Assembly (NCBI GenBank): GCA_964016885.1 | Contig: OZ024741.1 | Span: 230,020,001 to 230,084,000 of the forward strand | Direction of reading: 5' to 3' | Length of the DNA stretch: 64,000 nucleotides | Origin: Eledone cirrhosa | Taxonomy: Eukaryota | Shown: one piece after another, positions 22,800-22,895 of the stretch | Layout of the letters: every line of letters begins with the position of its first letter | How positions within the stretch are numbered: position 1 is the stretch's first letter | Notes under the pieces: model-generated | Databases searched by the model: none | What the model was told of the DNA's origin: nothing | What the model saw: the letters and a program-made list of their open reading frames with translations, nothing else | Made by a program: the position numbers and the translations under genes

Positions 22800-22895
22800 C
22801 AATAACTTATCAAGTTATTGACGCTCTGGGCGGTAGATATATTGTCCTTAAAGCATAGAAATATCCGAGACCCCCAGTAGACAACTGATGAGGAA
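22800..22895 (+). ncRNA. Diverged homologue of the permuted hammerhead-like motif
   Basis: A CAATAACT/AGTTATTG hairpin, then CTGGG cggta GATAT A TTGTC cttaaagcata GAA ATATC cgagacc CCCAG ta GACAA CTGATGA gga. Confidence 0.65.

Follow-up and report, generated by a model that had tools for sequence, protein, structure and literature searches.

Type-SGC hammerhead ribozymes (HRIMA-1 and the SGC variants) were described from metatranscriptomes, and the accessible part of that work reports none from the genomes of known organisms (Eckert et al. 2023, PMC10085705). RNAs with this block order cleave at rates of 0.007-0.13 per min, and the authors assume that the block composed of CUGAnGA and stem II cannot be interrupted. 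A helix II formed with a distant strand, as in the motif presented below, occurs in the pseudoknot (PK) hammerhead (Zhan et al. 2024, PMC11300833), which indicates that the core tolerates such a replacement. However, the PK hammerhead keeps the standard G10.1-C11.1 pair after A9.G12, and a four-way junction is not described in the accessible text. Hammerheads are also carried by animal non-LTR retrozymes (bioRxiv 10.64898/2026.07.22.740005), which resemble the present repeats in being small non-coding tandem units with one hammerhead each. These retrozymes and the min-HHRs of Penelope-like elements (PLEs; PMC4209133) have been proposed to be non-autonomous PLE derivatives, as is proposed here for the present repeats. 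The order found here differs from that of the PLE motifs, which the available part of PMC4209133 assigns to type I hammerheads, and no permuted ribozyme appears in the accessible text of the retrozyme preprint, where the sole match to 'permut' is the title of a reference. Finally, Naiad PLEs are reported to have no canonical hammerheads, to favour (TA)n targets, and to have insertions in tandem and inverted arrangements (Craig et al. 2021, PMC8557442). The portion of that study available to us marks eight Naiad elements, including Naiad_Ovul, as carrying a half-core (HHR_half_core), and calls the cephalopod Naiads long inactive.

Here we describe a motif in a 64,000-nucleotide stretch of the Eledone cirrhosa genome (contig OZ024741.1, positions 230,020,001 to 230,084,000, forward strand), hereafter the window. 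The motif resembles type-SGC hammerheads in its S-G-C block order and core letters, in the short linker between stems I and II, and in a helix that joins the far ends of these two stems. In the published type-SGC rows accessible to us, stem II is formed by the strand right after CUGAUGA. This is not so in the present motif, where the strands of stem II and of the interaction helix lie 5' of block S and a four-way junction made with helices J and P0 closes the break. Because the block order matches and stem II differs, the motif represents a new variant of the hammerhead. We infer that it corresponds to an SGC ribozyme whose ends have been joined into a ring and whose new opening lies between A9 and position 10.1.

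The copy at 22592..22981 is a decayed member of a large superfamily of short non-coding retro-repeats. On the evidence of sequence comparison, the non-circularly permuted, covarying, hammerhead-like fold is a real feature of this superfamily. Our main reading, to which we assign a probability of roughly 0.6, is that intact members would form a hammerhead of S-G-C order that is opened between A9 and 10.1 and would cut after H17.

Architecture of the motif and support for six helices

The core letters of the hammerhead, namely CUGANGA, GAAA, and UH beside stems I and III, are present. They occur in the same order (cut site, GAAA, CUGANGA) at 22794-22897, in a repeat designated family B, and in the tandem unit at 12.2-13.9 kb, designated family A. 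The features are as follows.

22592..22981 (+): family B non-coding repeat, a 5'-truncated monomer with a (TA)n tract on each side
22794..22799 (+): 5' strand of helix J, partner 22892-22897; would clamp the opened core
22800..22820 (+): hairpin P0, strands 22800-22807 and 22813-22820; one of the arms meeting at the four-way junction
22821..22825 (+): upstream strand of stem II, partner 22852-22856
22826..22830 (+): 5' strand of the outer helix, partner 22873-22877; counterpart of the type-SGC stem I-stem II interaction helix
22836..22847 (+): block S, comprising the stem III strand ending in U16.1 (22840), H17 (22841), and a stem I strand (22842-22847)
3' of H17 at 22841 (+): predicted cut
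22848..22865 (+): UUAA linker, stem II 3' strand (22852-22856), position 11.1 (22857), GAA (22858-22860), and stem III strand (22861-22865)
22873..22897 (+): outer helix 3' strand, stem I strand (22879-22884), CUGAUGA (22885-22891), and helix J 3' strand (22892-22897)
12225..13950 (+, ends approximate): family A tandem array with periods of 621 and 623 bp
12539-12642, 13160-13263, 13783-13886 (+): family A motif copies, one per tandem unit

Comparative sequence analysis supports helices J, P0, II, outer, III, and I. The strand preceding GAAA pairs upstream, with the segment that separates hairpin P0 from the outer helix, and both partners have changed across families. The strand following CUGANGA pairs with the bases just 5' of hairpin P0 to form helix J. 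These two pairings indicate that the core is open between A9 and position 10.1, with a four-way junction as its clamp. The path runs from A9 through J, hairpin P0, and stem II to GAAA, with the junction at the foot of stem II. A helix of 5-6 bp built from the upstream strand is present and would stack under G12.A9, and position 11.1 is variable (A, T, C, or G) and lacks a Watson-Crick partner in most family B copies.

A first-pass annotation of the window had proposed four helices (an upstream hairpin, an outer stem, stem III, and stem I), and each is found at the positions listed above. Its spacings of 11 nt from stem I to GAA and 24 nt from GAA to CUGA, and its predicted cut 3' of 22841, were likewise confirmed. 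These helices are real, but the four-helix model misses two more, stem II and helix J, to which the 'nGC' and the GGA after CUGAUGA, both called unpaired in that annotation, belong. The stem III strand that it gave for the tandem unit, AGGTAT, holds for tandem copy 3 only; copies 1 and 2 carry an A.C mismatch.

When a family A copy is set against an intact family B copy, the 32 pairs of the six helices exhibit 12 double changes, one wobble change, and one break. By blastn, families A and B have no significant similarity to each other (best E 0.057), and none outside the motif either. In an alignment of 14 sequences, 92.1% of cells are paired and 20 of 33 pairs have changed on both sides, including four of the five pairs of the outer helix; the figure for helix II is lowered by three family B rows that are out of register there. 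None of 500 shuffles scored as high, and slid controls gave 27-45%.

Among 16 representatives, which come from families related to one another and include one, D2, that is mis-anchored, Watson-Crick pairs between cognate strands exceed those obtained by permutation in stem I (83/96 versus 49.8) and stem III (62/80 versus 47.3). The same holds for the upstream stem II (67/80 versus 53.7), the outer helix (64/80 versus 42.0), and helix J (52/64 versus 42.6), where offsets were picked by best pairing, as was that of P0, whose control was denied equal freedom, so that these counts lean towards the model. Helix J is the weakest, with 840 of 20,000 permutations reaching its score when one sequence per clade is used; in 37 family B copies it is paired in 193 of 222 cells. 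The earlier proposal that the fold is common to at least two element families understated the matter, since far more than two are represented in this comparison. The same annotation regarded the family B copy as an independent homologue, a description that does not hold: exact spacings are common to the families and intermediates join them, so they share an ancestry and did not arise separately.

The search patterns imposed CUGANGA and GAAA, but not U16.1 or H17. H17 obeys the not-G rule (A57, C28, G2, and T2 of 89), and the motif varies freely at the positions where hammerheads do (N7, and H17 as not-G). An older family, read in 21 copies (including loci L281 and L283-L301), exhibits an arrangement in which a 6-bp stem II abuts GAAA, P0 extends to 12 bp, and J begins directly after A9, with no unpaired base in the junction. 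The 10.1-11.1 pair is provided from the upstream strand in 20 of the 21 copies, and 11 of the 21 carry CCGAUGA instead of CUGAUGA, a U4C change in what was once a successful family.

The window copy carries two private substitutions at paired positions, 22847 in stem I and 22855 in stem II, both of which break a helix. The pairing base is present in about 99% of family contig depth at 22847 and in about 95% at 22855 (two contig runs from one sample), and stem I is 6 bp across family B but broken at 22847 here. The minimum-energy fold of this copy favours a competing hairpin over the six-helix model. The ribozyme fold of this copy is probably weakened by the two helix breaks.

Searching the window with a descriptor for S-G-C order, in which stems I and III had to measure 4 bp or more, returned three matches, at 22841, at 13830, and a weak one at 30737, compared with a mean of 0.03 in 100 dinucleotide shuffles of the same sequence. 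A motif profile search of the window found exactly four copies, and the Rfam hammerhead families gave no match there at gathering score. Because Rfam and standard descriptors miss the motif, more examples may be hidden. Separately, CTGATGA followed by a short hairpin and then GAAA at 37808-37840 is a possible decayed type I hammerhead.

Repeat families in the genome and a probable link to Naiad elements

Across the whole genome of about 3.0 Gb, the core pattern has 7,665 exact matches, whereas its reversed control has none. First-look candidates amount to 2,351 (family B), 2,626 (family A), and 2,043 (the older family), figures that are not copy numbers. One further pattern was discarded for counting because its matches were dominated by the type I hammerhead family of an inverted-repeat PLE. 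The full unit of family B is estimated at 530-540 bp from partial tandems at loci L002 and L013; some copies reach further 5', and partial tandems and inverted pairs are seen. The (TA)n target, partial tandems, and inverted 5'-truncated copies constitute a Naiad-like insertion style, and non-coding tandem units with one ribozyme motif each are found as in non-LTR retrozymes. Other repeats of the window include a 3-kb array of an AT-rich 14-bp unit at 1-3058 and two head-to-tail copies of a 132-bp unit at 24744-25006, which we take to be SINE-like.

Copies of family B are about 89-95% identical to each other. Minority letters occupy 3.0% of core columns and 3.0% of helix columns, against 7.2% elsewhere, where the columns include unstable pyrimidine runs. 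That core and helix are equally variable fits neutral decay of inserted copies combined with selection on master elements. The first-pass annotation had argued that the fold is under selection. This stands for the master elements, where covariation indicates it, but no selection is indicated on the window copy. Family A copies are 99% identical to each other, in contrast to the long inactivity reported for cephalopod Naiads in the part of the literature available.

Reading by eye, the six-helix fold was recognized at seven Naiad 3' ends, drawn from 30 (places 21-50) of the 62 CTGATGA places in the accessible Naiad supplement and belonging to four unrelated groups with differing sequence. These are the two octopus records Naiad_Obim and Naiad_Ovul, three records of the Acropora group, and the records preceding Naiad_Dcar and Naiad_Ppla. 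In all seven, no base separates stem II from GAAA or J from A9. Among the other places, 34 and 35 have a type-I-like layout instead of the six-helix fold, and no six-helix fold was obtained at place 42, a cephalopod half-core. Four loci of the present genome with the same fold (L271, L272, L273, and L281), representing older families, are found among the matches to Naiad-derived patterns. From these resemblances, it is likely that the motif descends from the 3' end of Naiad elements and that it is the ribozyme these retrotransposons were reported to lack, with cutting being predicted.

The present repeats differ from Naiads, as far as the latter are described in the accessible source, in having no ORF (N-terminal GIY-YIG, CxC, RT), and they have no sequence link to a Naiad ORF in this genome. 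Indeed, no Naiad ORF was found in this genome, where short Naiad-derived patterns gave 2, 9, and 2 matches. The motif is absent within 900 nt after the ORF at 17 of 17 loci of PLEs with a C-terminal GIY-YIG, several of which carry a canonical type I hammerhead. It is also absent from the displayed 3' ends of an abundant young zf-RVT LINE, for which C(C/T)GANGA occurs within the following 250 nt at three of 30 loci. An autonomous element carrying the motif, which the first-pass annotation had called for, was therefore not found in this genome among the loci inspected.

Several of these element types are represented in the window itself. A perfect inverted repeat of 1,214 nt (32274-33487 and 34000-35213) derives from a PLE with a C-terminal GIY-YIG; it includes an RT fragment at 32786-33964 (-), an endonuclease near 34384 (+), and, at its end, a canonical minimal type I hammerhead with CUGAAGA at 35015 (+) and 32472 (-). 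A frame of 352 aa at 39058-40113, read as PLE-like and without a Pfam match, is flanked by inverted copies of a single sequence with CTGAAGA at 38935 (-) and 40674 (+). Elsewhere in the genome, loci L240, L241, L245, L248, L249, and L251 belong to a C-terminal GIY-YIG PLE family with open frames of up to 938 aa and 3' tails that are long and rich in CA; within 900 nt of the stop, this family lacks C(C/T)GANGA. The segment at 26902-27780 is a 3' fragment of the very young zf-RVT LINE, presumably HERO-like, which ends in (CATA)n without a hammerhead core at its 3' end; genome-wide, this LINE has 39,132 first-look candidates, many with open frames of 1,174 aa. A LINE APE-type endonuclease ORF at 42208-43416 lies in the only GC-rich segment of the window.

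Predicted mechanism and alternative readings

In the proposed mechanism, the upstream strand would supply the 5' side of stem II, which would stack beneath the G12.A9 pair. Helices J and P0 would stack to create a four-way junction that fixes the upstream strand at the base of the core. A bridge between the distal ends of stems I and II, usually a loop-loop contact, would here be provided by the outer helix, which together with the UUAA linker would keep these two stems side by side. Cleavage would then occur 3' of H17. By analogy with retrozymes and PLE pseudo-LTRs, cuts between tandem copies would release unit-length RNA, perhaps circularized. By analogy with retrozymes and PLE hammerheads, this RNA might be copied in trans by a Penelope-like RT/endonuclease. 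In intact members, the repeat RNA is likely to be self-cut by the predicted ribozyme.

This arrangement places all pairings within one 104-nt stretch. However, the 5' link between the outer helix and stem III measures only 0-2 nt in family A and, by eye, in the Naiad records, and rough geometry suggests that the strand that has to pass from stem II along the outer helix into stem III may be short enough to strain a monomer. For this reason, completion of the core in trans is a live alternative, if an unlikely one. Here, the core of one unit would be served by the J, P0, stem II, and outer strands of the unit that follows it in the tandem, or of another molecule. In effect, an entire repeat body would be inserted between A9 and 10.1 of a type-SGC ribozyme, so that cutting would wait until a full unit had been transcribed. 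The elements do form head-to-tail tandems, and metazoan PLE hammerheads have been proposed to be dimeric in the accessible part of PMC4209133. On the other hand, type-SGC RNAs with 0-nt links exist among the published examples available, one Naiad record is also short-linked on the 3' side, where trans pairing would bring no relief, and some Naiads are listed without a pLTR in the accessible source.

Equally improbable, in our estimation, is that the fold is real while catalysis has been lost, leaving a hammerhead-derived signal for a reverse transcriptase or a protector of RNA ends. The variable and often unpaired position 11.1 and the U4C change in one family would be consistent with such a loss, as would the truncation points, which have no clear excess at the cut site. 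Among 137 alignments, three independent 5' truncation junctions fall within about -4 to +2 of the cut. At (TA)n-joined loci assessed by eye, seven of 25 distinct junctions lie at -4 to 0 (among the 100 listed of 1,090 matches), whereas comparison T/A sites in that truncation count, at -9 and at +5 to +7, held three and four. Any excess at the cut site is explained equally well by the TATA microhomology there. Loss of catalysis nevertheless sits poorly with the letters conserved across families, which are those of the catalytic core; the search patterns imposed some of these, though not U16.1 and H17.

A more conventional alternative, implied by the first-pass annotation, is an ordinary type-SGC ribozyme whose stem II consists of the single pair between G10.1 and 11.1, with the upstream pairings being incidental. 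A G does follow CUGANGA in most young families, and family A could form a G-C pair (26 of 93 motifs). However, the combination is G.A, G.T, or G.G in 60 of the 93 motifs, and the older family and the Naiad records carry C, A, or T after A9, none of which pairs with C11.1. Furthermore, pairing of a conventional stem II that uses the strand after A9 is at the chance level (18/96 versus 20.3 by permutation among the 16 representatives, and 45 of 222 cells in family B). We therefore hold this reading to be very unlikely. Chance resemblance in repetitive DNA has a negligible probability: the window does contain words like CTGATGA at close to the frequency expected by chance (14 versus 9.3), but the covariation, shuffle, permutation, and reversed-pattern counts rule it out.

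Implications for hammerheads and Penelope-like elements

The preferred reading, a hammerhead opened between A9 and 10.1, involves a split core with a four-way junction, a topology that we did not meet in the openly accessible literature searched. A pattern scan of metagenomes gave at least 119 loci, and none of those listed passed the structure descriptor; a viral scan gave two matches, both without a downstream CUGANGA. A broader statement, for which we see somewhat better than even odds, is that the topology lies beyond the six published block permutations, being an SGC ring reopened at A9/10.1 with a four-way junction, and that it would be active in thousands of copies. On this broader statement, it would be the missing ribozyme of Naiads from corals to cephalopods, and it might be gated until the next unit has been transcribed.

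If cutting is true, the assumption that CUGAnGA and stem II form one unbreakable block would be overturned, and non-circularly permuted hammerheads would move from environmental RNA into animal chromosomes, where they would reside in high copy. Moreover, the argument that Naiads spread without ribozymes would fall, and the finding would bear on whether hammerheads serve or parasitize Penelope-like elements.
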